Positions 7,972-60,576 of a DNA stretch of 64,000 bases are shown in pieces (position 1 is the stretch's first letter; each line of letters opens with the position of its first letter). Source of the DNA: Ignavibacteriota bacterium (GTDB taxonomy: Bacteria; Bacteroidota; Ignavibacteria; UBA10030; UBA6906); NCBI GenBank assembly GCA_963849385.1, contig CAWKHH010000009.1, positions 77,337 to 141,336 of the forward strand, written 5' to 3'. Below the pieces are notes generated by a model that was not told the DNA's origin, searched no databases, and worked only from the letters and a program-made list of their open reading frames with translations. A program made the position numbers and the translations under genes.

Positions 7972-8687
7972 TCAGGTTGCCAAAAACGGGGTCGTTTCAT
8001 GAATCACGCCGTCCACGATGCGAAGCACTCTGTCCGCCTGACGGGCGAGGTTTTCGTTATGGGTGACCACGATGAACGTTTGGCCCCATTTTGCGGCTCA
8101 GATCCCGTATCAACTCGTGCAGGTGCTCAGCATTGGCGCTGTCGAGGTTCCCGGAGGGTTCATCAGCGAGAATCACCCGGGGGGCGTTCATCAGAGCACG
8201 GGCAACCGCGACTCGCTGCTGTTCACCGCCCGAGAGCAGCGGTGGCTGTCTGTTCCGCACGGCCATCCACACCGACTTCGCGGAGCAGACGCAGGGCTTT
8301 TTGGCGAACATCCTGAAGTTTCGCCCCCATGATCAGCGAGGGCATGGCCACGTTCTCGAGCGCGGTGAACTCCGGCAGGAGATGGTGAAACTGGAAGACA
8401 AATCCGATGGAACGATTTCTGAAGCGCGCGAGGTCATCATCCCCCAGTGCAAACACATCCACATCGTCATAGTGGACATTGCCGGAAGTCGGCCGGTCGA
8501 GCGTGCCAAGAATATGCAGCAATGTGCTCTTCCCTGCCCCCGACGCACCGACAATGGCGATAATCTCACCTGCCGCGATGCGCAGCGTGACTCCGCGCAG
8601 GACACAGAGCTTGCCTCCGTCCGATGCCCCTGCCCGAAACGTTTTGGTGACTGCGGTCGCTGTGATGATACCTGGCGTAGATGTCAT
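7972..8687 (-). CDS. lolD: lipoprotein-releasing system ATP-binding protein LolD; reading frame is interrupted twice
   Basis: Walker [10 protein letters not shown] and [15 protein letters not shown]. The protein is spread over three frames (ORFs 8223-8687 and 8057-8311, plus a C-terminal [29 protein letters not shown] frame). The two +1 shifts lie near 8248 and 8085. Confidence 0.7.
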
Positions 8688-8694
8688 GCCACTG

Positions 8695-9925
8695 TTACTC
8701 CCACCGGATTGCCTGCACGGGCAGCAGACCTGCGGCCCTGCGGGCTGGATAGAGTGATGCGAGGATGCTCAAGCACATCGAAGCGAGAGCCACAGCCACA
8801 AAGTCGCTCCACCGCACCTCGACAGGAATGGCCGGAATGATGTACACGGTCGGGTCCAGCGGAAAGAGCTGGTAGCGTATCTGGAGATAGCAGACCAGGA
8901 GCCCGATGCCGGTGCCGAGAAGCGTTCCGATCGTTCCCACGAGCACGCCTTCGAACATGAATACTCTCATGATGCTCGATGATGTCGCTCCGAGCGCCTT
9001 GAGAATACCGATGTCGCGGCGTTTCTCGATGACACCCATCGTCAGCGAACCAAGCACATTGAACGTGGCCACACCGACGATCAGGCAGAGGATGATGTAC
9101 GCGGTCCACCGTTCAATCTTCATGACAGAGTATAAATCTCTGTGCAGATCGTACCATGTGGAGACCCGGTACGATGGACCGAGAGCGCGTTGCAGATCCG
9201 CCTTGACGCCGTCTGCGTCGCTGATGCTGTGCAGGCGCATCTCCACCCCGCTGACCGCATCGCCCATGTCGAAGAGCGCACGTGCAGTCGCCAGGGACAC
9301 GTACGCATAGTGGGCATCGTAATCCTTGTTGTTGGAGTCGTACACGCCGACAACCGTGCATTCGCGCATCACCGGCTGCCCGAATTGCACGACCATGGCA
9401 TCCACGCCGACCGGACTCAGGATGGTGAGATCGGCGCCGACCGTGGTTCCCAAACGGTCTGCAAGTCCCAACCCGAGCACGGTCCCCGCCTTCTCCGGTG
9501 TGTCGTTGAAGGCGAACGCTCCGAGGACCGTGCGTTGCTTCACCCCGGATACGCCCTCGACGAGAGAATCATCCACCCCTTTCACAAGGACAACGCGGTT
9601 CATCCGGCCGGCAACGAGCAGCGCTTTGTTGGCCACATACGGCGCAGCGGCTGCGATACGCGGATCGCCTCTGAGTTCCTGCATCACGCTGTCGGTGAGA
9701 CCCATGCGACCGCCGCGTGCAGCTTCGATACGCACGTGCGGATCGAATCCTACGAGCACGTTCGTCACCACGCTGTTGAATCCGTTGAACACCGAGAGGA
9801 CGATGATCAGTGCTGCAACGCCGACGGTGATCCCGATAACCGACACCAGCATGATGATGTTGATGAAGCGCATCTGGCGCTTTGAGCGCACATACCGCTG
9901 TGCCATGAATCGTTCGAAGCTCATC
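8695..9925 (-). CDS. lolE: lipoprotein-releasing ABC transporter permease, LolC/E family (FtsX domain)
   Basis: About 410 aa with an N-terminal TM, a large periplasmic loop and a C-terminal FtsX-type 3-TM bundle. ATG (MSFERF...) overlaps the upstream stop (ATGA). Confidence 0.75.
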
Positions 9926-11141: not shown

Positions 11142-11143
11142 GG

Positions 11144-12255
11144 TTACGCAGGGCTCCCCGGACCGGTGGCAAGGAGGAATCCTTTGATGAAATCGTCAAT
11201 GCCTCCATCCATCACCCCCTGAACGTTGCTTGTCTCAACATCCGTGCGGTGATCTTTCACCATGTTGTAAGGATGGAACACATAGGAGCGAATCTGGCTG
11301 CCCCACTCTATTTTCTTCTTCGTGCTTTCGATGGCGTCCCTTTTCGCCTCATCTTCCTCCTTACGCCGCTGATAGAGCTGCGACTTGAGCATTTTCATGG
11401 CCGACTCGCGGTTCTGAAACTGCGACCGTTGCTGCTGGCAGGCCACGATGATGCCGCTGGGAACGTGGGTGATACGGACGGCGGTTTCCACTTTGTTGAC
11501 GTTTTGCCCTCCCTTGCCGCCCGACCGGTACGTATCGATCTTGAGATCCACAGGGTTTATTTCGATTTCCACATCGTCTTCAATTTCGGGATAGACAAAG
11601 ACTGAAGCGAACGATGTATGCCGCCGCGCATTCGAGTCAAACGGAGAGATGCGCACAAGCCGATGGACGCCATTCTCTGCTTTGAGATAGCCGTACGCAA
11701 ACTTGCCTGTGACTTCCACCGTCGCGCTCTTGATGCCCGCGGAATCCCCTTCGAGACGATCCACCAGGGCGACAGAAAAGCCTTTCCGTTCACACCAGCG
11801 CAAATACATGCGGAGCAGCATCTCACCCCAATCCTGCGCCTCCGTCCCTCCGGCACCGGCATGAATCGTGAGAATTGCATTGCGCTCATCATCATCGCCG
11901 CTGAGCATGTTGCGGAACTCAAGCTCGGCAAGACCGGAACGCATAGCCTGCCAGTTCTGTGCCGATGTCCGTGGCCAGCGATGCATCGTTCGACTCTTCC
12001 GCGAGTTCAACGAAGGTGCTCGCGTCGCTGAGACGCTTCGCCAGCCCCTTCCATGCATCAACCCACTCCTTGCGCGAACTGATGTCCTGCATCACCTTCT
12101 GGGCTGTGACATTGTCATCCCAGAAATGCGGGGCCTGGCTCTTCTCCTGCAATTCCGCTATCGCTTTTTCCTTGGCATCAATGTCAAAGATACCCCCGGA
12201 GCGCCTTCAAGCGCTCGGTGAGTTCCTTGATCTCCGTTTTTTGATCTTCGAGCAT
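11144..12255 (-). CDS. prfB: peptide chain release factor 2, with the canonical programmed +1 frameshift plus one additional frame break
   Basis: N-terminal [23 protein letters not shown] is followed by the CTT TGA C shift site with an upstream AGGGGG. Downstream are the SPF and GGQ motifs ([20 protein letters not shown]). A second, unexpected +1 shift sits near 11945 between ORFs 11919-12152 and 11144-12061. Confidence 0.9.
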
Positions 12256-12323: not shown

Positions 12324-14091
12324 CTAGACAATTCTGATATGCAACTCCCGCAGCTGCTTGTCGTCCACTTCACTCGGTGCTTCGTCCATCAGGGAGACAG
12401 CGTTGGCGGTCTTGGGAAAGGCCATGACATCTCTGATGGACTTCATTCCCGTCATGATCATCACCAGACGGTCAAAACCGAAGGCAATGCCCCCATGGGG
12501 CGGTGCGCCATACCGGAACGCGTTCAACAGAAACCCGAACCTGTGCTCCGCCTCTGTTTCTCCAATCCCGATGAGCTCGAACATCCGGCTCTGCATTGCC
12601 CTATCATGGATGCGGATGCTCCCTCCTGCAACCTCGGTTCCGTTCAGGACCAGGTCATACGCCCGTGCCCGGGCCTTCCCGGGGTCAGTGTCAAGCAAGG
12701 CTGCGTCATCCGGGTTGGGTGCAGTGAACGGGTGATGCACGGCTACAAATCGCTTCTCTTCTTCGCTGTATTCGACGAGGGGAAAATCAGTTACCCATAA
12801 TAGATCAAGTCTGTTCTCCTGAATAAGCTTAAGCCTCCTCCCCATCTCCAGACGCAGCGTACCGAGAATGGTGTACGCTTTGGTCCAGGTGTCAGAGACC
12901 AGCAGCGCCAGATCCCCCTTCTTGCCCCCCATGGCTTCGACCATCTTCTGCAGAAGATCTTTGCCGAGGAACTTCTCAATCGGGCACTCAACCCCGTTCT
13001 CGGTCCATCTGACGTACACAAGTCCGCCTGCGCCAAGGCTCTTCGTGTAGTCGACAAGCCCGTCGAGTTGGTTCCGGGTCATGCCTGCTTCGCCGGGAAC
13101 GACAAAACCCGCCACAACACCGCCTTCCTTCACAACATCTGCGAAGACCTTGAAGGGGGCATCTTTCACAATATGGCCCACGCTTCTGAGTTTCAGGCCA
13201 AATCGGGTGTCCGGTTTGTCGCTTCCGTATGTTTCCATTGCCTCGGCGTACGTGAGGCGCGGAAGAGGCAGCTTGAGCTCGACTCCCTTAAGCTCCTTGA
13301 ACATGCGCTGCATCAGCCCTTCGGTAATGTCCCTTATATCCTCCTCGTCAACAAACGACATCTCGACGTCAATCTGCGTGAATTCCGGCTGGCGGTCCGC
13401 ACGCAAGTCCTCATCCCTGAAGCACTTCACGATCTGCACGTAGCGGTCCATCCCCGAAACCATCAGCAACTGCTTGTATGTCTGGGGTGACTGTGGCAGC
13501 GCATAGAATCGTCCGCGATGCACACGACTGGGGACGAGATAGTCCCGTGCTCCTTCCGGCGTGCTCTTCATCAGAATCGGTGTTTCGACCTCGATGAACC
13601 CGTGTTCGTCAAAGTACCTGTGCACGAGCTGGTACAACCGATGACGGAACTGAAGATTCTTCTGCAGAGTCGGACGGCGGAGGTCCAGATACCGGAACTT
13701 GAGACGCAGATCCTCACCCGCATCCACATCTCCATCAATCGGAAACGGAGGAGTCTCGGCGCGATTCAGGATTGTCAGCTGCTCGGCCATCACGTCAATC
13801 TGCCCGGTCGCCAGATTCCGGGTTGACGGTCCCTTCCGGCCTCATTTCCACCGTGCCAGTCACAGAAATCACGAACTCGCTTCTCAGCTCCTTGGCTAGC
13901 TGATGGGCATCCCCGTTCTGTTGAGGATTGAAAACAACCTGCGTCTTTCCATACCGGTCACGGAGGTCGATAAAAATCACCCCTCCGAGATCCCTGCGGA
14001 CGTCTACCCATCCATTCAGGGTCACATTCTTCCCGATAAAGTCGGGACGGAGTTCACCGCATGTATGTGAACGTTTTGCAAAAGCCTGCAC
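12324..14091 (-). CDS. aspS: aspartate--tRNA ligase; frame interrupted once near 13800
   Basis: N-terminal OB anticodon-binding domain ([19 protein letters not shown]...) in ORF 13795-14631 and the class II catalytic domain ([20 protein letters not shown]...GGSIRIH) in ORF 12324-13793. GTG start at 14091 with an AAGGAG RBS. Confidence 0.85.
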
Positions 14092-14415
14092 GTGGATCTC
14101 CTTGGATATCAAACATTTAATATAGCCAAAACCTGCAAGAGTATCAAACCCGGGCGGTGCAGAATGACCCCCAGGATTGAGGTTGGCAACGCATTTGCAT
14201 ACTTTGATCAAACCTCCAACGACATCGTGCAACCCATGCGCATCATCCTTGCATTTCTGGCATTCGGCGACCATCCCGGTTCTCGCACAGGATGATCCGG
14301 CAACTCTTCGCCGTATTCGGGACGACAAGATCGAGACGATCCTCCGTATAGCAGGACCGCCGGTCGCTGCACGACGGACAATTGGTGTCACTCCTCTCCG
14401 ACGCTGATCCGGCCG

Positions 14416-16315
14416 GTGCGACGCCGTGCATATCTCTCGTACGGCAGCATCCAGGACAGCACAGCGCTTCCGCTTCTCGTTCGTGGCCTCAGCGACCCTG
14501 ACATCACCGTGGAAGAAGCTGCTGCATTCGCCATCGGACAGACCGCCGCAGGTCTTTCTCTGCCGCGGAGAACCGAGCTGGAGCATGATCTTCTCTGGAA
14601 TCGTATTCAAGCGACGCAGGTTCCTGATCAATTGATAGAAGAACTTGGAAAATTTGGCACTACGGCCGGGTTGCAGGACTTAATCATCCGCATCGGCAAT
14701 GTGTATCCCCGGAGCCACGAGGGCGGCATGACCATGGCGATCGCCCGATTTGCCATACGCGGCATTACCGACGCAGGAGCAGTGCGATATCTCCTGGCAG
14801 GAATCCGGACAGCAGACCCGGTGCCCTGGCAGGCAATGTATGCGCTGCAGCGCATAGGTGATCACCCTGAAATCCGGGCAGACCTTGAACATCTCGTACT
14901 TCTCAGGCAGAATCAGGATCCGCTTGTTCGCATGAATCTGGCGACGCTGCTTGGCAAACTCCGCGACGCGCGCACAGCCAAAGATCCATTGATCCGTCTT
15001 GCCTCCTCCGACTCCGACTGGCGCGTGCGCGTCTCCGCGCTTCGATCCCTTGCCGGTTACCCGATCGCATCCGATCCGGCAGCGCTGGACGTGTACCGCC
15101 GGGCATTTTTCGATGCCGACATGAACATCGCGCTGGCAGCCATCGCAGCGCTCAGATCATCGGACATCACTTCCGTCCGACACAGCCGGCACTGGAGGCG
15201 AGGTTCTGATGCAGCTTGGCAGCATGGCGACCAACCACGGTAATGCTTTCGCGTGGCAGTATCAGGCTGAGTCTGCCCACACAATCGCCGGTCTCCTGCG
15301 GTCAGCGGCGTTCCGGCACTTCGCTGAAGCTTCCTGGCCAAACCCCAACCTGCAGGCAGAGATGCTGCGCGCGCTGGGATCAACCGGTGTTACGCAAGCA
15401 GCCGCACCTTTGCTTGCAGCCCTTGATGACGATAATTCCATCGTCAGGTGCGGCGCACTCGAAGGTTTGGCAACCCTCGCAGCCCTTCGCCCGACAGACC
15501 ATGGATTGCGCAAGGCCGTACGTGCGACCCTGCCGGGGCTGGGCGAGAGCGGAGACGTGGCCGTCGTCGCCACTGCGGCAGGAATGCTCGCCGACTCTCT
15601 TTTTGCCGACGCACAGAGCACAACTGATCTTTTACGTTTGCTTTCCCGGGTGCGCGGTCCCGACGACGTCGAAGCACTGTTGGAGGTCATCAAGGGTCTT
15701 GGCGCCCTCGGCGAGAACCAGGCCGTTCCGCAACTGATTGAACTGCTGTCGCAGACAGAGCGCTCAATCGCATCTCAGGCCGCCGCAGCATTGCGTCGGA
15801 TCACGGGCATCGACTACTCCGGCAGGATCGTCGACCGTGAGCCGTTCTACACCGACTTTGATTTCGCATACCTCAGGTCACTCCCCGACACCATCCATGT
15901 GACGGTGTCCACGGCACGCGGCGATATTGCCGCGGAACTCTACAAGGAGCTTGCGCCGTTCACCATCATGAGCATGCTCAAACTTTCGGCGCAGCGCGGT
16001 TTCTATCGCGGACTCACCTTCCACCGCGTTGTCCCGAATTTTGTGATCCAGGGAGGTTGCCCGCGCGGAGACGGTTGGGGCGGCCCCGGGTATACGCTCC
16101 GCTCGGAATTCTCAACTGCCCGCTATCTCACCGGCACGATTGGTATCGCATCGGCGGGGAAGGATACCGAGGGTTCACAGTTCTTCGTTACGCATTCACC
16201 GCAACCGCATCTTGATGGACGGTACACCGTCATCGGCCGGGTGACTGATGGACAGCGGATCGTCGATTCGATCCAGCGCGACGATCGCCTATTTGACTTC
16301 AGAGCTCAACAATGA
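14416..16315 (+). CDS. HEAT-repeat (PBS-lyase-like) protein fused to a C-terminal cyclophilin-type peptidyl-prolyl isomerase; frame break near 15180 and the true N-terminus may lie upstream
   Basis: Repeated LxxLxDxDxxVRxxAxxALG-like HEAT units, then a cyclophilin core ([13 protein letters not shown]...GWGGPGY). ORFs 14416-15243 and 15209-16315 overlap in different frames. Confidence 0.55.
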
Positions 16316-16323
16316 GGACCCCC

Positions 16324-18783
16324 ATGGGACAACTGCTTCACTACCGTCGGCATTGTACTCTCTGCACTGTTCCTGCTTTCCGGATGCGGCAGCGGATCTA
16401 ACGCAGTGTTGCCCGGGACACTCGATGACGGCACAACTCTGTCTGCCCAACGGCTGGCGTCTCTCCCCTGCAGGCACGCATCTCGGCGTTGGCGAATTGC
16501 CTCTCAACGCGGATCTGTCTCCCGATGGTCGGTACGCAATCATTACGAATGACGGCACCTCACAGCATTCGATCTCGATAGTCGATCTGGATCGTTGGGA
16601 AGTTACGCAAACGTTGCGAATCCCGAAGGCCTGGATGGGCATCAAGTTCTTCGATGGCGGGAAGAAATTCGTCGCCTCCGGAGGCAATGATAATTGCCTT
16701 CGGATCTACCGGTTTGAGGATGGGATGGCAACGGAGGAGGACAGCGTTTCCGTCGGTCGCCCGTGGCCGAAGGATAAAATCTGGCTGGCCGGACTCGACA
16801 TTGATCACTCCACCTCCACTCTGTTTGTCGCGGGAAAAGAGGACAGCCGTCTGTACGTGATCGATCTTGCCCGCAAAGCTTGTGGGGAGAACCATTCTCT
16901 TGCCTGCCATCCCGTACGGCGTGTTGTGTGATCCCCGTTCACGCAGTGTGTGGGTTTCCATCTGGGGAGGAAGCAGCGTCGTTCGCATCGATGCGGCATC
17001 ACTCTTGCGGTGACGGATTCGCTGAAGGTAGGCGATCATCCATCGGCAATGGAATTCTGGGCAGAAGGCAATACGCTCTGGGTCACGAATTCGAATCTGA
17101 ATACCGTGTCAGTGATCGACGTTGGTTCACGCAAGGTTGTGGAAACTCTCACGACGGCACTTTCACCGCAGGCTCCTCCCGGCAGCACGCCGAACGCTCT
17201 CGCGTTCGATGCCGCACGGAAGAGACTCTACGTTGCCAATGCCGACAACAATTGTGTTGCGGTCTTCGACGTTTCCCAACCGGGCCGTTCCCGCTCGATC
17301 GGGTTCATTCCCGTCGGGTGGTATCCGACCACCGTTCGCGTCCGCCCGCGCAACGGTGAACTGCTCGTGGCCAACGGCAAGGGCTTCGCATCCCGGGCAA
17401 ACCCGCACGGACCGAATCCCACACAACGTTGAAGAAAGGACGAGGAATACATCGGTTCGCTTTTCAAGGGTTCCCTCTCGCGCATCACTCCACCGGACGA
17501 GGCCGCACTTGCTGCCTACACCACGAGGGTCTATCAGAACAGTCGTTACACAGACCAGCGCAGCATGCAGCCCGGCAATGATCCGAAGAACCCGATTCCG
17601 GCACGGACCGGAGGAGCGTCACCGATAAAGCATGTGTTCTACGTTATCAAAGAAAACAGGACCTATGATCAGGTCTTCGGCGATCTTCCTCAAGGCAATG
17701 GGGACGCGTCTCTCTGTCTGTTCCCGGAGGAGGTCACACCAAACCTGCATGCACTTGTGCGTGAGTTCGTGCTTCTCGACAATTTCTATGCGGATGCCGA
17801 AGTCAGTGCCGACGGCCACAACTGGTCGATGGGTGCGTACGCAACTGATTTCACGGAAAAAACATGGCCGACCCAGTATGGCGGCCGGGGCGGTGAGTAT
17901 GTGTACGAAGGCGGAACACCGATTGTCTTCCCTTCATCGGGGTATCTGTGGGACAACTGCCTGCGCAATGGCAGGTCATACCGCACATACGGGGAGTTTG
18001 TATTCAACCCTGAGGTGCCCGGCGATTCAGCGAGACCCGCAAAGGAGTCCATTGCCGGCCATCTCGCGCCGTTCTACCGGGGGTGGGATCTCGACTACTC
18101 TGACGTCGACCGGGTGAAAGCCTGGATGAAGGAGTTTGATGAGTTCGAGCGGACGGGTAGACCTCCCGCAGTTTCAGATCATCAAGTTGCCGAACGATCA
18201 CACGTCAGGCACACGCTCCGGGTCACTTACTCCGAGGGCGTATGTGGCGCAGAACGATCTGGCGGTGGGCATGCTTATCGAAAGGATCAGCCACAGCAGG
18301 TTCTGGAAGGAGTGCGCGATATTCATCATCGAAGATGATGCACAGAACGGACCTGACCATGTCGACGCGCATCGCACGGAGGCCCTGGTAATCAGTCCCT
18401 TCGTCCGTCGCGGCACGGTTGACAGTGAGCTCTATTCCACCACATCGATGTTGCGCACAATGGAATTGATCCTCGGATTGCCGCCGCTCACGCAGTTTGA
18501 TGCAGCTGCAACGCCCATGTATGCATCGTTTTCAGCGGTACCCGATACGACGCGGTATACAAGCCGGCCTGCACGCATCAGTATCTTCGAGCGCAATGCC
18601 GACAAATCTACGGGTCAACTGCGGAGCAACGAACTGGACTTCAGCATTCAGGATGCGATTCCGGACGTGGAGCTGAACGAGATCATCTGGAAATCGATCC
18701 GTGGAGAGCATTCGTCCATGCCGGCCCCTGTCAGAAGCGCATTTGTGCAGGTGCAGCCGGAGGCGACACGGGATCGGGACTGA
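16324..18783 (+). pseudogene. lipoprotein with YncE/YVTN-type beta-propeller fused to a phosphoesterase (phospholipase C / acid phosphatase family) domain; disrupted by at least 5 frame shifts and an in-frame TGA
   Basis: Lipobox LSALFLLSGC, beta-propeller repeats (LYVIDLA, TLWVTNSNLNTVSVIDVGSRKVV, RLYVANADNNCVAVFDV), then phosphoesterase motifs (HVFYVIKENRTYDQVFGDL, IIEDDAQNGPDHVDAHRT). Spread over ORFs 16248-16931, frame 1 at about 16870-17010, 16950-17432, 17565-18338 and 18136-18783. In-frame TGA at 17430. Confidence 0.6.
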
Positions 18784-21199: not shown

Positions 21200-22836
21200 A
21201 CAATTTGCTCGACATCAAAACTCCAGCCCAGGGCGAGGCGCAAGCCCTCAAAAGCGACTACACTCTGGAGAACCAGGGACTCACGAATTTGCGCATGGCG
21301 TACTGGAACCTCCCGACCGAGGCGCTGTACGAAGAAATCGCATTCAGGCGCGAGGCACGCGTAGCACGCGACGGTCCGATTGTCGTCCATACCGGAAAAC
21401 ACACGGGTCGGTCCGCCAACGACAAGTTCGTCGTGAAGGAAGGCAGTACCGATGAGCACATCTGGTGGGGTGAATATAACCGTCCTTTCAGCCCGGAAAA
21501 GTTCAACGATCTCTACAACCGGATGCAGGGGTATCTGCAGGGCCGGGATGTGTTCGTGCAGGATTGCTACGCCGGCGCGGATCCCAACTACAAACTTCCG
21601 ATCCGCATTATCACCGAGTATGCGTGGCAATCACACTTCGCACGGAACATGTTCCTCCTGGCGCGCACGAACGAGGAACTCCGCCGGCACATCCCGGAAT
21701 TCACGGTGATTGCAGCCCCCGGCTTCAAAGGGATCCCGCAGATAGACAGCACGGCGACTAACACATTCATCGTGCTGAACTTTGCGCAGAAGCTCTGTCT
21801 CATCGGCAACACCGGTTACGGTGGAGAGATCAAGAAGTCGATCTTCACGATCCTCAATTATCTTCTGCCGCTGCAAAGTGTGATGCCGATGCACTGCTCC
21901 GCGAACATCGGCGCAAAGGGCGACACCGCGCTCTTCTTCGGGCTTTCGGGCACAGGCAAAACCACGCTTTCAGCCGATCCGCAGCGCCGCCTGATAGGTG
22001 ATGACGAACATGGCTGGAGCGATGACGGCATCTTCAACTTTGAGGGCGGGTGCTACGCCAAGGTGATCCAACTCTCCCCCTCTGCCGAGCCGCAGATCTA
22101 TGCGTGCACGCGCAGGTTCGGAACGATACTCGAAAACGTGGTCTATGATCCGGTCTCGAGGCTGATCGACCTCGACGACGAATCCATCACCGAAAACACC
22201 CGGGCGTCCTATCCGCTCGATTACATTGAAAACGCTGTGCCCGAGAAGATGGGCGGACACCCGAAGAATATCATCCTTCTCACCTGCGATGCCTCCGGGG
22301 TCATGCCGCCAATCGCGAAGCTCACAGTCGACCAGGCGCTGTATCAGTTCATTTCCGGCTACACCTCGAAGATCGCCGGCACGGAAGCCGGCCTTGGCAA
22401 GGAGCCGGAGATGACGTTCAGCACATGCTTCGGCGCCCCGTTCATGGTGCACAGACCTCCCTTCTATGCGGACCTGCTGAAGCGAAAAATCCTGAAGTAC
22501 GGCGCCAACTGCTGGCTCGTGAACACCGGATGGATCGGTGGTCCGTACGGGGTGGGCAAACGCATCAGCATCCGGTACACTCGCGCATTGCTGAATGCCG
22601 CCCTGGATGGCAAGTTGCTGACTGTTCCTTATAAGACCGATCCGGTGTTCGGGTTTGCAGTGCCGCAGAAGTGCGAAGGGGTTCCCGAGAACGTCCTGGA
22701 TCCGTCGGGTTCCTGGTCGGACAAGAACTACTACACGCAGAAGTACCGCGAGCTGGCGACGCGCTTTGTCGAGAACTTCAAGAAGTATGAAGATGGGTGC
22801 GCACCGGAGGTGAAAGCGGCGGGACCGAAAAGATAA
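21196..22836 (+). CDS. pckA: phosphoenolpyruvate carboxykinase (ATP)
   Basis: [23 protein letters not shown] kinase-1a and IGDDEHGW motifs. About 545 aa. Start overlaps the aminotransferase stop. Confidence 0.9.
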
Positions 22837-24305
22837 GACTGTTCACTCCTCTTCCCTCCGAAGATCGACCCCAGCACCCCCCTCATGATCTGTCTGCCGA
22901 CCTGCGTCCCGGCCGCCCTGATTGCGCTTTGAGCCATCGCGGAGATCAATTTTCCTGCCTCGCTGGGTTTTTCTTTTACAGGTCGTGGGGCTTCGGCAGG
23001 CGGCATCCCCTGCGGGCTCGTCTGCTGTCTTCCCCTCAGTCGTTCGTACGCCGACTCCCTGTCGACGGCGGCTTCGTAATGCCCGAAGATCGTTGACGAC
23101 TTGATGATGGCTTGTCGTTGATCCGGCGTGATCGGGCCGATCTGCCCGTTCGGCGGGAGGACGAATGCCCGCTCGACTATCCCCGGCGCTCCCTTCGGCT
23201 CGAGGAAAGAAATGAGGGCCTCTCCCACGGCGAGTTCAGTGATGACCTTTTCGACGTTGAGTTTGGGGTTTCCGCGGAATGTGTCTGCAGCCGCCTTCAC
23301 GGCTTTCTGATCGCGCGGGGTGAACGCACGAAGCGCATGCTGCACGCGATTCCCGAGTTGTCCGAGCACAATGTCCGGAACATCGAGGGGATTCTGTGTA
23401 ATGAAGTAGACGCCGACTCCTTTCGAGCGCACCAGCCTGACAACCTGCTCGATCTTGTCGAGCAACGGCTTCGGTGCGTCAGAGAACAGCAAATGCGCCT
23501 CATCAAAGAAGAAGACAAGTTTTGGTTTCTCCTGATCGCCGACCTCAGGCATCCGTTCGAAGAGCTCAGAGAGCATCCAGAGCAGAAATGTCGCATAGAT
23601 CTTCGGGGTCTGAAGGAGTCGGTCCGCTGCCAGGATGTTGATCATCCCCCCGCCTTCCGCGTCGGTCTGCATCAGGTCATCGAGATCAAGTGCGGGTTCT
23701 CCGAAGAATGTCGTTCCTCCCTGTTCCTCAAGCGTGAGGAGGCCCCGCTGAATCGAACCCACGCTCGCGGCCGAGACATTGCCGTACTGTGTCCTGTACC
23801 CCGAGGCATTGTCGCCGACGTGCTGCAGCATCGCACGCAGATCTTTGAGGTCTAGCAACAGCAGACCCTGATCATCGGCGATGCGAAAGACCATCGTCAA
23901 CACGCCTTCCTGCGTTTCGTTGAGATTCAACAGGCGCGCGAGCAAGAGTGGTCCCATCTCGGATATCGTCGCCCGGACAGGGTGTCCCTGTTCACCGAAG
24001 ACATCCCAGAATGTTACGGGACTTCCGCGGTAGGCAAAGTCCTTCAGGCCGAGCAGCTTGATTCTTTCCGCGATTTTCGGTTTCGCCGTTCCGGCCTGAC
24101 TGACTCCTGAGAGGTCGCCTTTGACGTCTGCCATGAAGACCGGCACGCCGATGCGGCTGAATTGTTCCGCCATAACCTGCAGCGAGACCGTTTTGCCCGT
24201 GCCCGTTGCGCCGGCTATCAATCCGTGACGATTGGCCATGGCGGGGAGAAGGTAGAGTGGTTGATCGCTCTGAGCAATCAGGAGGCCGCTGGATGCGTCG
24301 GACAT
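22731..24305 (-). CDS. DUF853-family HerA-like NTPase (YjgR-like)
   Basis: Walker A GATGTGKT and a HerA/FtsK-like core, with a conserved C-terminal [11 protein letters not shown]. The last ~35 aa look non-homologous and overlap the pckA 3' end by about 100 bp, so a 3' frame error is possible. Confidence 0.7.
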
Positions 24306-25621: not shown

Positions 25622-25704
25622 AACGGTGCGGGCAGCCGAAAAGTTCCTGCGTCGTTGCATCTCCGTGAATTATTTTCGACATTTGCATGCGAAAGGAGCC
25701 ACCC

Positions 25705-26623
25705 ATGACCATTCTCGTCACCGGCGGTGCAGGATTCATCGGCAGCCATATCGTCGAACACTTCCACACAAAAGCCGACGTCATCGTCCTCGACAACCTC
25801 CGCTCCGGCTTCCAAGAGCAACGTCGACCCGTTCAAAGTCCGGTTCATCCACGGCAGCATCACCGATGCCGTGCTCGTCAACGACATCATGAAGGATGTG
25901 GACCATGTCTTTCATCTGGCGGCTCTGGTGAGCGTGCCGGAATCCATGGAGAAACCCCGGGAAGCAGTGGAAATCAATGTACTGGGAACACTGCACGTTC
26001 TCGAAGCGGCTCGCGCGTGCAAGGTAAAAAAGGTGGTGATTTCCTCATCCGCGGCAATCTATGGCGACAATCCGACCGTACCGAAGATCGAGACCATGAC
26101 ACCCGAACCCCGAAGTCCATACGCCATCACCAAACTTGACGACGAGTACTATGCCCGGATGTTCACCGCCGACTTCGGTCTGCCCGTTACATGCTTGCGG
26201 TATTTCAACGTCTTCGGACCGCGGCAGAACCCCACATCCCAGTACGCTGCGGCAGTGCCGATACTCATCGACAAATGTCTTCGCGGTGAAGAAATCGTGA
26301 TCTACGGTGATGGAGAACAGACGCGCGACTTCATCTATGTCAAAGACATCGTTGCTGCGAATCTGCTGGCGGCGACTTCAGATGTTACGGGGGTCTACAA
26401 CGTGGCGAATGGACGGAGCGTAAGCATCAACAGGCTCGCAGAGATGATCGTCCGGATTACCGGTGCAGACGTACCGGTCCGTCACGCCCCGGTTCGTTCC
26501 GGCGATGTGAAACACTCCCTTGCTGATACCGGCCGTGTGCGAGGGGTCGGGTTTACGCCGCATACGACGCTCGAGGAGGGGTTGAAGGCAACAATCGAGG
26601 ATATGATGGCCCGGAGAGTCTGA
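25705..26623 (+). CDS. NAD-dependent epimerase/dehydratase (UDP-sugar 4-epimerase-like); frame break near 25810
   Basis: AAGGAG RBS, GGAGFIGSH Rossmann motif, and YxxxK active site (YAITKLDDEYYARMF). ORFs 25687-26139 and 25727-26623 are in adjacent frames. Confidence 0.8.
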
Positions 26624-26710
26624 TCGCCTCTCCGGCACCATGGCCGTTCAGACGGGGGTGCGGGTGCTTTACCCGGTGGCTTCGCCCCGCGCGTGTCCGC
26701 TGCAAGAGCT

Positions 26711-41248: not shown

Positions 41249-41261
41249 TGAAGGTCTCCAG

Positions 41262-42623: not shown

Positions 42624-42711
42624 AGCGAATTCTCCTGAACGTTTGTGTGGAATGGCAAGTACGATGCTGTCAATATCGGAAAATTCCGCACAACTGTCTA
42701 CACCCCTGAGT

Positions 42712-42867: not shown

Positions 42868-44640
42868 ATGAAAGAGACCTACACGCGGTGCATCTTCCTC
42901 CTGGTGTGTTTGGCATCTACTCTTCCCGCTGTCGCCGGCCCGCCCACTTTCCCGTCAGTCTCCGATACTTCTGATAACCACCGGTTCGATATCGTCATCA
43001 GAAACGGCCGGGTCGTGGACCCTGAACGACGGCTGGATTCTGTGCTGAACATTGGAATAACCCGGGGAACAATCCTCGAAATTTCGGCTGATTCGTTGCG
43101 GGGACGCCAGATCATTGATGCAACCGGGTTGGTCGTTGCTCCGGGGTTCATTGACCTTCTCTCCTATGATCCGATCGAGCCAGGTGTATGGACCAAGATA
43201 GGAGATGGTGTCACCACAACGCTTGCCATGCATGGGGGAACGGCTGATCCTGATCGCTGGTATGCTGCTTATGCCAAACAAAGACCTCCTGTAAATTACG
43301 GCGCGTCATTCTTCTACAACGAAGCAAGGGTTCAGATCGTCAAGGACCGGTACCAGCCGGCATCGGCTGAGGCGCGGGGAATATTGCTGGCACGGGCAGA
43401 GAAAGCGCTCCGCCGCGGTGCTCTCGGTGCATCGTTTGCACTTGAGTATGTTCCCGGCACCGCCAGCGGGGAGATTCTCCCCGTCATGTCCCTTGCAGCA
43501 AAATACGCACTGCCCGTATTCTTCCATGCGCGGTATTCAGACATGGAAGAGCCCGGCACCAACCTTGACGGTCTTCGGGAAATCATCGGGTATGCACGCA
43601 CGACGCATGCGGCTGTACACATTGATCATATTAACAGCACAGGTGGCACGTTCTCCATGCCACGGTCGCTTGCCATGCTCGATTCTGCACGCTCGGAAGG
43701 GCTGGACATCACTGCGTGCATGTATCCCTACCCCTATTGGGCAACATACCTCAACAGTGCCCGGTTTGACGCCGGGTGGCAGCACCGGTTCCATATTTCG
43801 TATGGAGATCTCCAGCTCGGCGGATCATCAGCTCGACTCACGCGTGAAACATTCCTGGAGAATCGCCGGCTCGGCAAACTGGCAGTAGCGTATGCAATTC
43901 CTGACGAAGACAACCGGGCCGCACTCCGGTCGTCGTACGTGATGATCGGCAGTGATGCGATCCTCGAGCCCGGTTTCAACAATCACCCCCGGGCATCCGG
44001 AACATTCTCCCGCACGATAGCGGTGTACGTCCGCGAGCAAAAAACCATCTCGCTCATGGATGCTGTCGCGAAAATGACTATTCTGCCGGCCCATCGCATG
44101 GAGAGTGCAAGCGCGTCGATGAAGCGGAAAGGACGTCTGCAGGTGGGCGCCGATGCCGATGTGGTCGTGTTCGATGCGTCGCGCATTCGCGACCGGGCGA
44201 CAGTGGAGCACCCCGAGGCACCTTCCGAAGGGATTCAGTACGTTCTTGTTGGCGGGAAAGTCGTTCTTGACGGATCGGGACTGCACAAGAACGTGCGGAA
44301 TGGATCGGCAATCAGGGGGAAGATCATGAATAGCACAAGAAACCCCGCCCGGCATTTCACCGAGCGGGGTTTCGCATTAATCCGGAGCCCCGAAAGCTCG
44401 CGCTACCAGGCTTCACCGGAGGCTCCTATGTTTGTTGTCAAGATAGGATCACCTCCCTTCCCCAGGGCACTTAGAACGCGACAGAAGCTTCCCTGTAAAA
44501 CTTCCGGCGCAGCGTGGACTGCACCGGAAATGTACAAAGAGACGGACAAAAAGCAAAGGGTTTTTCTCAACCGGGCATCGTCACGCAGCACAATGAGAAA
44601 GAAGGCCCGGCAATGTGCCGGGCCTTCTCGTGAACGGTGA
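42868..44640 (+). CDS. amidohydrolase-family protein (N-acyl-D-amino-acid deacylase/D-aminoacylase-like); 3' end probably earlier (about 44325)
   Basis: Signal peptide, metal-dependent hydrolase core (RNGRVVDP...GFIDLLSY...) and a beta-sandwich C-domain. The last ~100 aa are low-complexity and read through a terminator-like hairpin. Confidence 0.65.
   Translation: MKETYTRCIFLLVCLASTLPAVAGPPTFPSVSDTSDNHRFDIVIRNGRVVDPERRLDSVLNIGITRGTILEISADSLRGRQIIDATGLVVAPGFIDLLSYDPIEPGVWTKIGDGVTTTLAMHGGTADPDRWYAAYAKQRPPVNYGASFFYNEARVQIVKDRYQPASAEARGILLARAEKALRRGALGASFALEYVPGTASGEILPVMSLAAKYALPVFFHARYSDMEEPGTNLDGLREIIGYARTTHAAVHIDHINSTGGTFSMPRSLAMLDSARSEGLDITACMYPYPYWATYLNSARFDAGWQHRFHISYGDLQLGGSSARLTRETFLENRRLGKLAVAYAIPDEDNRAALRSSYVMIGSDAILEPGFNNHPRASGTFSRTIAVYVREQKTISLMDAVAKMTILPAHRMESASASMKRKGRLQVGADADVVVFDASRIRDRATVEHPEAPSEGIQYVLVGGKVVLDGSGLHKNVRNGSAIRGKIMNSTRNPARHFTERGFALIRSPESSRYQASPEAPMFVVKIGSPPFPRALRTRQKLPCKTSGAAWTAPEMYKETDKKQRVFLNRASSRSTMRKKARQCAGPSRER
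44341..44371. terminator. terminator-like hairpin AACCCCGC(N15)GCGGGGTT
   Basis: 8 bp GC-rich stem followed by TTCGCATT, lying between convergent genes. Confidence 0.3.
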
Positions 44641-46915: not shown

Positions 46916-47108
46916 CGGTAATCTTCTTGATCAGGTCGCCAATTCTCTTAAACACGGATAGTGCCAACGACCGCTCGCTTTCTTGATAAGAGGTAGAGTG
47001 TTTAAACCTACGCTATTATGGTGCGAGTATCAAGTTCTCTTTCGGTGTTGCCGTCGAGTGTGATTCTTTGTATCCTGAATGATCACAACCGGACCTCAGA
47101 AGCGTACA

Positions 47109-48986
47109 ATGTCGAAACCACCAGCTGCTGTACTGCTTACCGCGCACACCGTCTCCGTCCGGTTCGGAGAACACCTTGTCTTGCGCGGCGCAACCCTGAG
47201 CATTCACCAGAATGACAAAATCGGGCTGATCGGGAATAACGGATCCGGCAAGTCAACTTTCCTGAAGGCACTCGCCGGTCTGATTCAACCTGACACGGGA
47301 ACGATATCGCGCCGACGCGATCTGCTGATCGGGTATCTCTCCCAGGATTTCCAGCTTGACCCGGCAAAATCCGTGTATGACAACATCCTTGACGGGGCGC
47401 ATGACGTCATTGATATCCTGCGCGAATATGAGGCGCTTCCCTATACATCGGAAAGACGCCATCTCCTCGAGAGTCAGATACATCACCGGGATGGATGGAA
47501 TCTCGAAAACAGAATCGAAGCGGCGATGCATTCGCTTAACGTTCCCGAGAAGAACCGCGACATTCGCACGCTTTCCGGCGGGGAGAGAAGACGCGTGGCT
47601 CTCTGCAAAGCAATCATTGCGCGGCCCGACCTGCTCCTCCTCGACGAACCGACGAATCACCTCGACACTGAATCCATCGAATGGGTGGAAGAGTTCCTGA
47701 ACACTTTTCCGGCAGCATGCCTCTTTGTGACACACGACAGATATTTTCTCGATTCCATCGCGAATAGGATTGTTGAGCTGTCAGACGGAGTCTGCGTTTC
47801 GCACACAGGGAATTATGGCGACTACCTGGTCGACAAGGCGGAACGGGAGGCACAGCAGGAGACCGAAGAGAAGAAGCGAAAGAGCTTCCTCCGCCGGGAA
47901 CTCGAGTGGGTGCGCAAGGGACCACGGGCTCGAAGAACAAAATCAAAAAGCCGGCTCCAGAAATACTTCGAGAGTGGTTGACGAGGGCGGTTACGAAGCG
48001 GAGCAGGAGGTGGAACTCATCATTCCCCCCGCCCACCCCTCTCGGATCCAAAATCCTGAATCTGAAAAATCTCAGTGCCGCTCAGGGGGGAAGACAACTG
48101 TTCGAAGGCCTGACGCTGAATTTTACCAAGACACGTAAGCTTGGAATCATCGGACGGAACGGACTCGGTAAGACAACGCTGCTGAGAATCATCCTTGGAG
48201 AAATCCAGCCTGCCGGCGGAGAGGTGGATGCCGGCGAGAATACCACGTTCAACTACGTCGATCAATCGCGAGTCTCTGTTAACAACGAGAACACCGTTCT
48301 CCAGGAAATCGGCGAAGGAAGGGAATGGCTCCTCCTGGGTGAGGAACGCATTACCGTGTGGAGATACCTGCGTCGCTTCCTCTTCGCGGACGACAGGATG
48401 AACGCAAAGGTGGGAAGTTTGTCGGGTGGTGAACGGAGCAGGCTTCTTCTCGCCAAAATACTGAAGAACGGCGGCAACTTTCTGATTCTCGACGAACCGA
48501 CCAACGACCTCGATCTGGCGACGCTTCGCATCCTCGAAGAGGCGCTGGCTGCATTTGATGGATGCGTGATTGCCGTGAGTCACGACCGCTATTTTCTGAA
48601 CCGCGTGTGCAATGGCATCCTTGCATTCGAAGGGCAAGGGGTCGTCCACTTCAGCGAAGGCGACTACGACTACTATATCGACAAGCGCAACGCCCGCCTT
48701 GCGGAGGCAGCACCCCCCTCTGCGCCCCGGAAAGAGGATCCGCGCGTGAAATCCCGGCCGACGAAGTTGAAATGGAAGGAAGCAAAGGAGCTGGAAACAA
48801 TCGAGGATGACATCATGAAGGCGGAAGCACGTGGTTGAGAAGATCGAGTCGCTCTTCTCGGCGCCTGACTTTTATGCGCAACACGGCGAGCAGACTGCCC
48901 GGTTAAGAGATGAGCTTGCCTCCGCAAAAGCAGAAGTCGAACGTCTTTATGCGAGGTGGCATGAACTGGAAGCGCTGAGGACGTGA
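47109..48986 (+). CDS. ABC-F family ATPase (EttA/Uup-like, two ABC domains); reading frame interrupted 3 times
   Basis: Two Walker A sites (GNNGSGKST, GRNGLGKTT), two LSGGE signatures and a C-terminal coiled-coil region. Spread over ORFs 47079-47981, 47770-48138 and 47906-48838, plus a C-terminal frame ending at 48986. Confidence 0.8.
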
Positions 48987-51129: not shown

Positions 51130-53284
51130 ATGAATGAAAGCCTGGATCTCGAAGTCCAGGAGTCGACGACCGACTCCCGTATCACTCGGCGCGATTTTCT
51201 CAAGACGACAGGCAGCGGCATCTTCCTCTACTTCACCATCAGAGATCCGGAGTTGCTTCAGCAAGAGGTCGGGGGTCGAAGACCATCACCCGGACTGCCG
51301 ACTGATTTCAACGCGTTTCTGAAGATTGGAGACGACGGACGTGTTACCTGCTTTACCGGCAAAATCGAGATGGGCCAGGGTCCGATCACCTCTCTCGCGC
51401 AGGAGCTGGCAGATGAACTCGATGTTCCTCTTGATGCCGTCGATATGGTCATGGGAGATACCGACCTTTGCCCGTGGGACATGGGGACGTTCGGCTCGAT
51501 GACAACGCGTATCTTCGGCCCCGCCCTTCGGACCGCAGGCGCGCAGGCAAGACAGGTCTTGCTGGAACTGGCTTCTGAGAATCTGAAAATACCTGTTTCA
51601 CATCTGGCTGTCGAAAACGGAGTCGTAGTCGACTCAGGCAGCACTCTGCGTCGCATCTCCTACGGCCAGCTGACCCAGGGAAAGAGAATCGAACGTCACC
51701 TCACACAGCCGGCAGTCACTAAGAAGCCTTCGGAGTTCAAAGTGATGGGGAAACCGGAACTCCGTAGAGACGCACGGGTGAAGGTGACCGGCAGCGCGAA
51801 ATACGCCGGAGATATCCAGCTACCCGGGATGCTCTATGCAAGACTGCTTCGGCCTCCCGCACATGGCGCGAAACTCCTTGGTGCCGACCTCTCCGAAGCA
51901 AAGAAGGTGCAGGGAGTTCAGATCATCCAGGAGGGAGATTTCATCGCCGTCCTCCATAGATATCCGGATGTCGCTGAGACTGCGCTGTAAGAATTAAGGC
52001 CACATTCGACAAACCCAAATCAGGTATTAATGATGCAACGATTTTCGATCATCTGCTGAAAGTCGCCCCAGAAGGCCGGATGGTGGCACAGGGAGGAAAT
52101 CTTCAGGAAGGCGAGCGCGCCGCAACGGCCACCATTGAAGAGACCTATCTCGACGGCTACAAAGCGCACTCACCGATCGAGCCCCACACGGCTGTGGTGA
52201 AGATCGAAGGGAACAAGGCAACCGTCTGGGCGTCTACACAAACGCCGTTTGGTGCGAAAGATGAAGTCGCGAAGGAGCTTGGCTTCCGTCCGGAAAATGT
52301 GAGAGTCATCACCCCCTTTGTCGGCGGCGGATTTGGTGGCAAGTCAAGGAATCTGCAGGTTGTTGAAGCCGCCCGCTGTGCGAAACTCAGCGGAAAGCCG
52401 GTTCAGGTGGCCTGGTCCAGAAAGGAGGAGTTTTTCTTCGATTCGTTCCGGCCGGCGGCAGTCATCAAGGTGCGATCAGGAATGACGGCGGAGGGAAGGA
52501 TAACTTTCTGGGATTATCATGTCTACTTTGCGGGCGAACGCGGGTCCCAGCAATTCTACGATATCCCCCACCACCGTACTGTTGCACACAATTCAAGCTG
52601 GGTGGGAGCAGCGGGTTCCCACCCGTTTGCCACAGGGCCCTGGCGTGCACCGGGAAACAACACGAACACGTTTGGCCGCGAATGCCACATTGACGCGTTG
52701 GCAGCTCGATCCGGTATCGATCCCGTCGGATTCCGGCTCCGTAACCTGTCGGACGCAAAAATGAAACGCGTCCTGCAGGCTGCTGCGGACAAATTTGGAT
52801 GGAAACCGGCGAAATCACCCAGCGCCAGAGGATACGGTGTGGCGTGTGGGATTGACGCGGGAACGTACGTGGCTGCCATCGCTGAAGTGGCCGTCGACAA
52901 AGCCACTGGACGGGTGAAGACCAAGAGGGTCGTTTGTGCTCAGGATATGGGTCTGGTGATCAACCCGGAAGGAGCCACTATCCAGATGGAAGGCTGCATT
53001 ACGATGGGCCTTGGCTATGCCTTAAGGAGGACATCCATTTCAAAGACGGAGAGATTCTGGACGTCAATTTTGACACGTATGAAATCCCGAGGTTTTCCTG
53101 GCTGCCGAAGATAGAGACCGTTATCCTTGACAGCAAGGAAGACCCGGCCCAGGGCGGGGGCGAGCCGGCAATCGTGGTGATGGGAGCGGTCGTTGGAAAT
53201 GCGATCTATGATGCCGTCGGCGTACGATTGCATCAGATGCCGATGAACCCTGAGAGAATCACAGAAGCACTGAAGCGGGGTTAG
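51130..53284 (+). CDS. molybdopterin-binding large subunit (IorB/CoxL-like) with Tat signal; reading frame interrupted twice
   Basis: RRDFLK twin-arginine motif and an MoCo-binding domain. Spread over ORFs 51130-51990, 52080-53114 and 52934-53284. Translationally coupled to the 2Fe-2S subunit. Confidence 0.8.
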
Positions 53285-56588: not shown

Positions 56589-56607
56589 AGTTTTCCTTCT
56601 TTATGTG

Positions 56608-57531: not shown

Positions 57532-58294
57532 TTGGGTTTGGTGAGTGAACGGGAAACGTGACTGAAATCTAGGACAGAAAGGGGTTATTCGCAAGCAAAA
57601 CAAAAGTTAAGGATGACAGTGAGTTTCGTTCGTGATAGCTCTGGACATATCGATTCAGGGCTGTACCTCTTCAATATTCCATCCGCTCCAACATAGCGAA
57701 TCCGGACCTCTGTCGCTACTTTGAAATGTGTATCAACCAACCGGACAGAAGCCCAGACCGAGGGGGGAGATTGACCAGGTGGGTGTGGTGAACGGGCCGC
57801 ATCACTATTACTACCGAAGGGTCGTGTAAGAGCTACTGAAGAGTTGATTGCCGCAATGTTGGCAGTGTGGATCGAGGGAAATCTATTTCATCGGTCGAAC
57901 AAACGCGTCTCTTCGGACAGAACTTGCGCGCTCTTCCCTCTTGACAAACCCAGAACTCTCCCCCACGCACCTTCTCATGGAACAGAATATCGCACTTAAC
58001 TCATGAACCGCGATGGGAGTATGCCTCGGATGGAATATTGACGACGGACAACTCCCCTCTCTTTGACTCGAGATACCCCGACAGGTACATCATCGGCCGG
58101 TTTGGCCAAGGAGACAGGCATACCCGGAGAACTCTCAAAGATGACATGTGCACGTCTTGGACACGTTCGAAAGACGTGTCAACTCCAGGGACGGGATCAA
58201 ATACTCAATAGGCCAGTCGCTCACCCAATTCGCGTTTGACTATTCTCTTGTTCTGAGTTATTTTGTCGGCGTGAACCCACTTGAAGGAACTGTC

Positions 58295-60576
58295 ATGGCT
58301 GCCCTCGTTGGTCAGATGGTCTCTCACTACAGGATCCTCGCACACCTCGGCAGCGGCGGCATGGGCGTCGTCTACAAGGCCGAGGACACCCGGCTGAAGC
58401 GAACCATTGCGCTGAAGTTCCTCCCTCCCGAGTTCACGCAAGATCAGACCGCACGGGAACGCCTTTTCCACGAAGCCCAGGCAGCCTCCGCATTGGAGCA
58501 TACCAACATATGCTCGGTCCATGAGCTCGGAGAGCACGACGGCCGCACGTTCCTCGTCATGGGGTTCTACGAAGGCGAGACTCTCAGGAAAAGATCGATC
58601 ACGGGCCGATGCCGATTGACGCTGTCCTGGATATCGCGATCCAGGTTGCCCGGGGGCTCTCCCGTGCACACGAAGCGGGCATCACCCATCGCGACATCAA
58701 GCCGGCGAATCTCATCGTGACCACCCGGGGTGAGGTAAAGATCCTGGATTTCGGCCTGGCGAAGCTCGCCGGACGGACAATGCTCACCAGGAGCGGATCG
58801 ACGCTCGGCACAGCGGCCTACATGTCCCCGGAGCAGGCGCGGGGAGAGAGCGTTGATCATCGGACGGACATCTGGTCGCTGGGGGTGGTGCTCTACGAGA
58901 TGATCGCGGGCCGTCGGCCGTTCGCCAGCGAATACGAGCAGGCGCTGGTCTATCAGATTCTCAACACAGAGCCGGAGCCGTTGACGAGGGTCCGTCCCGA
59001 GACGCTCCCCGGCCTGGCACAGATCGTCGGACATGCCCTGGCAAAGCAGCCGGCAGAGCGTTATCAGACCATGGAGGAGTTCCGGGACGATCTCGCGGCC
59101 GTCGCCGAGGGCCTCAAACCCCTCAAAGCCAAGCCTCTGGTCGACCATCCCGAGAAGTCCATCGCCGTGCTACCCTTTATCAACGACAGCCCCGACCAGG
59201 AGAATACCTATTTCATCAACGGGGTGATGGAGGAGATTCTGAACAACCTCCAGAAGATCAAGGCGCTCAGGGTCATCTCCCGCACGTCGGTCGAACAATA
59301 TCGGGAAAGGAAAAAAACCGTCCGCGAGATCGCCGAGGAGCTGGGCGTGAACTACATCGTGGAGGGCAGCGGTCAGAAATACGGCAACGTCTTCCGCCTG
59401 AGGGCCCAGCTGATCATGGCCGAGCATGAGTCACATCTCTGGGGGGAGTCTTTCCAGCAAAAGATCACCGATGTTGAGGATATCTTTAACATCCAGATCA
59501 GAATCGCCAAATCCATAGCCGAGGAGCTCCGAGCGGTCATATCCCCTGAAGAGAAAAAGCTCATTGAGAAGATACCGGTCGCGGACCTTGCCGTTTATGA
59601 CGAATATCTGAAGGCCCGCTCTTACGTTTATGATGGTCGAAGGGAAGCTTTGAACAAAGCCCTGAAGTTCCTGACCAGCGGCGTCGCGAAAAACCCCGGC
59701 TGGGCGCCTCTCTATGCGGGTCTGGCGGAAGCCTGGCTGTGGATACAACAGAACGCGTACGAACAGCCGTCCGTCACCGCTCCCCAGATCATCGAGAACC
59801 TGAACAAGGCGCTGGCATTGGACCCGGATCTTGCTGAAGCTCATTATCTCAGCGCCCTGATCGCACATCTCGTGGATTGGGACTGGGAGAAGAGCGAAAA
59901 GGAGTTCTTGAAGGCCCTGGCCATCAACCCCAACGATGCCCTTTCCAGGGGACTCTATGCGCAGCTCTTGTTGATCCTGCACAGGAAAGATGAGGCTTTG
60001 GCCCAGAATGAGCTGGCGCTGAGCCTTGACCCGCTGAATCCCATGATGAAGCTCTTCAATATCGGAACGCTGTTGCAGGCCGGTGAATATCAGACCAGCT
60101 TGTCTCTCGCGGAAGAAGCTTTGGCCGACGATCCGGACAATTTCAACCTCAATCAGATGATCGAGATCGCCGCTTACAGGTTAAAGCAGTACGACAAAGT
60201 CCTCCGAGCGGTCCGATATGTTCTTCCCTTTCCCCTCGAGGAAGATGCTTATAAGGACATCGAGAGGATCTACAGCGAATCGGGGATCGTTACGGCGTAT
60301 GAAAAGATCGTGGAACGTCTTGAGAAATACGCTGAAAGCCAGCCCGTCGGCTTTTGGGATATGGCCTTCAGGTATCTTGTGGCGGATCAACCCGATAAAT
60401 CCATGGATTGGGTCGAGAAGGGATTCGAGATGCACGACCCGCTCATGACCTACATCACCACACCAGCGCAATATTTCGATCGACTGTTCGGAAATCCGAG
60501 ATTCATGGCCATATGTGAGAAGATGAACCTTTCGCTTCCAAGATACCTCCCCCCCCGAGGCGTTCAAGGATCTTAG
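58295..60576 (+). CDS. serine/threonine protein kinase with C-terminal TPR-repeat domain; frame break near 58595
   Basis: [11 protein letters not shown] glycine loop, IALK lysine, [12 protein letters not shown] and SPE motifs, then TPR-like repeats. ORFs 58148-58720 and 58609-60576 are in adjacent frames. Confidence 0.8.

Follow-up and report, generated by a model that had tools for sequence, protein, structure and literature searches.

Pervasive frame breaks in the conserved genes of an Ignavibacteriota contig are very probably consensus artefacts

The stretch of DNA analysed here (hereafter the window) comprises 64,000 nucleotides (nt) of contig CAWKHH010000009.1 from an uncultured Ignavibacteriota bacterium (assembly GCA_963849385.1). 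It has 56% G+C and zero ambiguous bases and is densely packed with housekeeping genes, and Rfam and tRNA scans of the window returned nothing at gathering thresholds. Between 8.0 and 58.6 kb, 15 genes, among them lolD, prfB, aspS and dnaE, are interrupted by 32 robust frame-breaking coding events as judged by alignment to relatives and tblastn (Table 1), which amounts to 0.61 breaks per kb between positions 7972 and 60576, or about one per 1.6 kb. The original prediction of at least 30 frame breaks in conserved genes was borne out by both profile and alignment evidence, and nearly all of its coordinates, including those of the three breaks in the ABC-F gene, proved right to within 5-40 nt.

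Breaks were placed by global nucleotide alignment to close relatives and by frame switches in tblastn, and NCBIfam scans were run on the stop-to-stop segments of the window. One and the same NCBIfam family model is matched, part after part, by adjacent segments that lie in different frames. Three frames each cover lolD (TIGR02211 positions 1-140, 136-191 and 192-220) and dnaE (model positions 2-84 at 35998-36318, 77-292 at 35400-36101 and 294-1143 at 32837-35485). Profile coverage of prfB runs from 13 to 94 and then from 89 to 352 in different frames, that of aspS from 3 to 90 and then 87 to 586, that of the aldehyde dehydrogenase from 3 to 385 and then 388 to 463, and the ABC-F ATPase is covered at 3-286, 316-585 and 588-635. 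Consecutive profile coordinates in different frames are not explicable by chance, which confirms the observation of frame breaks. Alignment also upheld the proposed numbers of breaks for lolD (two), dnaE (two), the ABC-F gene (three), the IorB-like gene (two) and prfB (one beyond the programmed site). A gene for a hypothetical protein (hyp164) is an additional case, and the HEAT-repeat/cyclophilin peptidyl-prolyl isomerase (PPIase) gene, for which a single break had been proposed, has four. In the P-type ATPase gene, one or two further insertions lie near 26735-26746 and 26649-26653 besides the robust one.

Shifts in both directions occur, as had been claimed, but they are uneven: insertions make up 28 of the 32 robust events (P = 1e-5) and add a single base in 27 cases and 2 nt in one, against four one-base deletions (36775, 51988, 53026 and 58589). 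About ten further one-base indels, including insertions at 44468 and 44601, were found in intergenic DNA, where they are indistinguishable from real divergence. No breaks were detected in 1-7970 or 53.4-57.6 kb, where the genes look intact by Pfam coverage, and the counts of breaks per 4-kb bin do not contradict a uniform rate (chi-square test, P = 0.065). An intact polyamine-type cluster of 3.4 kb (54212-57606, minus strand) with genes of the arginase/agmatinase family, the deoxyhypusine synthase family and an Orn/DAP/Arg decarboxylase is likewise free of breaks. Several candidate breaks were dropped from the catalogue. Those at about 9922 and 10332 arose from two paralogous lolC/E-like permease genes (8698-11141), both intact, together with a frameshift within the related contig L011 itself; the gap at 51173 reflects a frameshift that belongs to relative L090; and 14173, 45226 and 46901 are poorly aligned gene starts, the first of them upstream of the likely aspS start.

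Table 1. Broken genes, genes with altered 3' ends, insertion positions and related contigs used for comparison. Positions are those of the window; aa, amino acids; ORF, open reading frame; MAG, metagenome-assembled genome.
Feature	Window positions	Strand	Observation
lolD	7975..8768	-	three frames; extra base near 8087-8091 and near 8241-8254; tblastn net +1
prfB	11147..12255	-	one non-programmed extra base near 11946-11965, besides the programmed +1 site
aspS	12327..14085	-	single inserted base at 13814
HEAT-repeat/cyclophilin PPIase (691 aa in relatives)	14236..16320	+	insertions 14269, 14351, 14411, 15176
YncE beta-propeller/phosphoesterase (817 aa in relatives)	16325..18783	+	insertions 16340, 16442, 16879, 17005-17006 (TT), 18158
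DUF853/HerA_C ATPase	22734..24290	-	stop of L141 absent (48-nt gap at about 22847); ORF continues antisense into PEPCK gene
NAD-dependent epimerase	25690..26623	+	inserted base 25813-25816
P-type ATPase (911 aa in relatives; 891-aa ORF here)	26650..29386	-	robust insertion 26803/26804
metallophosphoesterase	30490..31151	-	inserted base 30558, 25 codons ahead of stop
hypothetical protein hyp164 (164 aa in relatives)	31969..32470	-	inserted base 32037; C-terminus altered and extended
dnaE (1159 aa in relatives)	32837..36318	-	inserted bases 35418 and 36055
aldehyde dehydrogenase	36532..37958	-	single missing base 36775
two M16 peptidase genes	39799..42630	-	first gene insertions 41516, 41576, 41941; second gene 41211
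amidohydrolase (489 aa in relatives; 590-aa ORF here)	42868..44640	+	48-nt stretch with the relative's stop absent
ABC-F (Uup-like) ATPase	47079..48983	+	inserted bases 47974, 48032, 48830
IorB-like molybdopterin oxidoreductase subunit	51130..53284	+	missing bases 51988 and 53026
Ser/Thr kinase with TPR tail (750-753 aa in relatives)	58295..60576	+	single missing base 58589
insertions, 8-19 kb	8087, 8252, 11946, 13814, 14269, 14351, 14411, 15176, 16340, 16442, 16879, 17005 (2 nt), 18158		placed by alignment
insertions, 25-49 kb	25813, 26653, 26746, 26803, 30558, 32037, 35418, 36055, 41211, 41516, 41576, 41941, 47974, 48032, 48830		placed by alignment
L001-L008	22.85-46.29 kb		87% nt identity; JGI and ENA metagenomes
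L009	32.0-37.4 kb		91% nt identity; Logan assembly
L141-L143	17.9-30.3 kb		88-92% nt identity; Logan assemblies, three runs
L091	12.4-21.7 kb		91% nt identity; ENA metagenome
L094	45.4-49.0 kb		88% nt identity; JGI metagenome
L090	50.5-53.3 kb		83% nt identity; NCBI MAG
L092, L093	58.3-60.5 kb		88-89% nt identity; ENA metagenomes

The comparison with orthologues of related genomes that had been suggested found the compared genes intact. They are single ORFs of normal length (about 590 aa for aspS and 634 aa for the ABC-F protein), in conserved order, in short-read contigs (L001-L009, L091, L094 and L141-L143; 87-92% nt identity) that represent related populations from several separate samples, and the intergenic spacing and synteny of the window match these intact relatives. 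Even in the more divergent L090 (83%), the IorB frame is open across both break sites of the window. A protein search with the large dnaE fragment returned full-length orthologues (1159 aa) at 96%, 93% and 84% identity, more distant matches being named Bacteroidota, Ignavibacteria or Ignavibacteriae, and in a scan of aspS with one genome per species the nearest were Ignavibacteriota MAGs with at most 74% aa identity among the matches listed. Gene content varies among the close relatives: a glutamine synthetase gene (10751-12133 of L141) stands between the aminotransferase gene and a gene for a 293-aa protein in L141 and L142 and is absent at that place in the window (about 19612-19922) and in L091. 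Repeat copy number varies as well, since the N-terminal region of a DEAD-box helicase (46716-46828) holds a 27-nt in-frame tandem repeat of 4.2 copies and is 81 nt longer in the window than in L094.

Once inserted bases are removed and deletions padded, all corrected genes translate end to end in the frame of the relative, and the 15 genes hold a single in-frame stop, so that 32 frameshifts face one nonsense codon. The ratio of nonsynonymous to synonymous substitution rates (dN/dS, Nei-Gojobori method, calculated on the corrected genes) is 0.04-0.16 in nearly all long segments and similar upstream and downstream of the breaks. In dnaE compared with L009, the three segments have values of 0.037, 0.054 and 0.061 at aa identities of 0.96-0.98; the first M16 peptidase gene has 0.05-0.08 over four segments, the ABC-F gene 0.00-0.13, the IorB-like gene 0.10-0.16 and the kinase gene 0.12 and 0.16. 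For aspS, dN/dS is 0.21 upstream and 0.05 downstream of the break. The corrected reading of the HEAT-PPIase gene is free of stops against L091 (91% nt identity), with dN/dS of 0.11-0.28. Had a gene lost its function through a break at codon 86, an aa identity of 96% over the following 1070 codons (dS about 0.33) would not persist unless the break were extremely recent. Neither insertion sequence (IS) elements nor large deletions are present. The single nonsense codon is the TGA at 17430-17432 in the YncE/phosphoesterase gene, which had been correctly pointed out, and it lies within a cluster of C/G transversions: compared with L091, three such changes fall within 12 nt of 17419-17436 (TCA to TGA, ACA to AGA and GAG to GAC), creating the only in-frame stop. 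This cluster looks like a local burst of substitution errors.

The inserted bases themselves have an unusual character. Altogether 34 one-base insertions could be placed against a close relative, and 27 of these are G or C (P = 0.004 against 56% G+C). Only seven of the 34 repeat a neighbouring base, compared with 47% expected for random placement (P = 0.0014), which contradicts the original view of several breaks at short homopolymers. One-base indels of biological origin come mainly from replication slippage and mismatch-repair defects, and these duplicate or delete a base within a run; with so few insertions repeating a neighbour, the indels of the window are the opposite of the slippage type. 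The window has three runs of at least seven bases and none of them is at a break, the only A7 run (59311) included, while the A run at 58589 results from a missing G or C and is not the cause of the break. A methylation-like motif (GACGC/GCGTC), seen by eye at three sites, failed multiple testing.

A programmed frameshift is found at one place in the window only. The +1 site of prfB, which serves the autoregulation of RF2, is canonical (GGGGGTATCTTTGAC at 12197-12183 on the minus strand, with the ATG at 12255) and consists of a Shine-Dalgarno-like GGGGG element followed by TAT CTT TGA C. As a genuine recoding signal it is separate from the artefacts and must stay untouched when these are corrected. 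The remaining 32 breaks, in contrast, have no slippery motif in common, lack a Shine-Dalgarno-like stimulator upstream as well as a stop where the frame changes, and none has the long A or T runs that rescue by transcriptional slippage would need. The next stop in the old frame follows at anything from 0 to more than 800 nt downstream. Given such heterogeneous contexts and stop distances, recoding at stop codons was rejected.

Three genes had been described as having non-homologous 3' tails, and all three tails are real. The tail of the metallophosphoesterase gene is explained by the insertion at 30558, but the cause is ambiguous for the amidohydrolase and DUF853 genes. In the former, a terminator-like hairpin as well as a conserved intergenic element are read as part of the ORF. 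If the G5 run at about 44318-44322 were one G shorter, the amidohydrolase ORF would regain a stop two codons on, and one added base would put a TGA in frame for DUF853; neither is provable because the gene ends diverge. The gaps relative to close relatives at 22847 and 44323 were each scored as exactly 48 nt, each removing the stop codon and a spacer, and their equal size may be a coincidence. The intergenic DNA 3' of the amidohydrolase gene (44340-44590) equals or exceeds coding DNA in conservation (88-96% against L002 in stretches of 50 nt) and contains a GC-rich hairpin, AAACCCCGCCCGGCA...CGGGGTTT. No Rfam family matched this region at threshold, the sole weak match being STnc390 (E = 0.05), and it may be an undescribed small RNA or leader. 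On the other side of the gene, the divergent intergenic region between it and the M16 peptidase operon has a 17-nt tandem repeat (TGTGACAAACAGATCTA, 2.9 copies, 42711-42758) that L002 and L003 lack; it could serve as an operator array.

The breaks are in the deposited record, as the fragments stand in the public collection. Several ORFs of the window, fragments included, are exact public protein entries (a 344-aa IorB piece, a 655-aa kinase piece, an 891-aa ATPase and a 590-aa amidohydrolase with its false tail), all of which trace to one NCBI and ENA contig of 175,259 bp. Similar events are seen elsewhere. In L093, a 285-kb ENA/NCBI contig with a Flye-style name, the orthologous kinase is broken into three called pieces by three extra bases relative to L092 and the window (about 9228-11480 of L093), at sites where the window is intact; these breaks are at other positions than those of the window and thus are similar in kind but independent. 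In a control set of 80 related GTDB loci (about 1.3 Mb), counting only those frame switches that three or more other loci supported, we obtained seven breaks, four of which fall in Microflora Danica MAGs (three in L014, one in L020), all with a net +1 shift. Individual frame breaks were noted in L014 (14459, 16013 and 16721), L011 (about 8107, in the lolC/E-like permease) and L090 (about 9760-10047, at the IorB N-terminus). Microflora Danica MAGs, including those of this phylum, are Nanopore-only, assembled with metaFlye and polished in a single Medaka round, and their authors checked low-coverage MAGs for Nanopore-associated errors; shallow Illumina data also exist for the project (PMC12313526). 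Frameshifted gene calls are documented for Nanopore assemblies below about 40x coverage (PMC9262707). We infer that the window derives from Microflora Danica or a similar project.

Intact orthologues, unchanged selection, broken essential genes and the lack of a recoding signal argue for an artefact and against decay, and, judged by these comparisons, the frame breaks are very probably a product of consensus building or assembly and not mutations in the organism. The original prediction had favoured such an error as the simplest reading, and intact relatives, low dN/dS, the single nonsense codon and the missing recoding motif sustain it. Its alternative, genuine mutations in a hypermutator or in a lineage in advanced and very recent genome decay with many pseudogenes, could draw on the fact that the breaks stand in the deposited sequence, on the in-frame TGA and on two genes without the stop codon of their relatives, and dN/dS would not yet be raised if the events were very recent. 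We nevertheless consider it very unlikely, since dN/dS downstream of breaks (0.04-0.16) is as low as upstream, frameshifts outnumber nonsense codons 32 to 1, synteny and intergenic spacing are those of intact relatives, IS elements and large deletions are lacking, and the insertions are not slippage-type duplications as replication errors and mismatch-repair defects would produce; dN/dS and the non-slippage indels in particular contradict advanced decay. The genes dnaE, aspS, prfB and lolD are established essential genes, and all four are broken, which would be non-viable unless functional copies existed elsewhere in the genome; 32 very recent breaks, several of them in these genes, would be incompatible with a living cell. 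Decaying genomes such as those of Mycobacterium leprae and recent endosymbionts share the many genes interrupted by frameshifts. Their other hallmarks are relaxed selection, an accumulation of nonsense codons and deletions, IS expansion and the retention of essential genes, and within the window itself these are not seen.

Another explanation would leave the DNA correct and have expression rescued by pervasive recoding, i.e. ribosomal +1 frameshifting, transcriptional slippage or RNA editing. Most events are indeed +1, the same direction as at the real prfB site, but four are -1 and one is +2, the breaks share neither slippery sequence nor stimulator nor shift-site stop and lack long tracts of A or T, the same proteins are encoded with no shift in relatives at 87-92% identity, and one-base insertions also occur in intergenic DNA (44468 and 44601), so that this explanation is extremely improbable. 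Hardly any more credible is a version in which the extra G and C are really genomic and are removed by an unknown RNA-level deletion editing or bypassed by motif-independent +1 decoding; if true, essential genes would be functional despite about 0.6 frame breaks per kb. Among artefacts, the consensus might have written both alleles of a single-nucleotide polymorphism where co-assembled strains differ. Insertions dominate and are mostly unlike their neighbours, and soil metagenomes are microdiverse (PMC12313526), but about 18 of the 34 inserted bases adjoin their transition partner versus about 15 expected (hand count), i.e. without enrichment, and we regard this variant as rather unlikely.

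Consensus or assembly error thus remains the preferred explanation, and it resembles the gene-fragmenting indels of long-read data (Nanopore or PacBio continuous long reads) that the IDEEL test targets: conserved genes are split across frames, here about 0.6 times per kb, and short-read orthologues are full-length, as known for low-coverage Nanopore-only MAGs (PMC9262707, PMC12313526, PMC12007338). Most likely, the sequence of the window would have been assembled from long metagenomic reads of limited depth or with limited polishing, and consensus building might have written single spurious bases and, less often, dropped true ones; each indel would shift the frame so that gene callers cut one intact gene into two to six ORFs or attach a false C-terminal tail to it. 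Both the origin of the error and the sequencing platform are what we infer from these patterns. Some points weigh against this explanation. The error is deduced from the comparison of sequences, and no independently assembled genome of the same species turned up, 91-92% nt identity being the highest of any relative. Two stretches, one of about 8 kb at the left end and one of 5.5 kb near 53-58 kb, have no breaks, which is compatible with chance (P = 0.065) but could reflect local differences in read support. Further, the insertion-dominated, G/C-rich, non-homopolymer signature differs from the usual homopolymer indels of Nanopore data (PMC9262707): published long-read errors stress homopolymers, while here mostly a G or C is inserted between unlike bases. 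Low depth, strain mixtures and polisher behaviour are candidate sources of this signature.

The insertion-biased, non-homopolymer signature may help the tuning of polishers for low-coverage metagenome bins. Fragments of the broken genes are already separate public 'proteins' (the 344-aa IorB piece, the 655-aa kinase, the 891-aa ATPase with its false tail), and such fragments will inflate pseudogene counts and suggest domain architectures, C-terminal extensions and 'overlapping genes' that do not exist. Annotation and comparison of this contig need frameshift-aware gene models or a re-polished sequence. As biology, the breaks are unimportant: the genes affected serve ordinary housekeeping functions in an uncultured Ignavibacteriota bacterium, and the issue is one of data quality.

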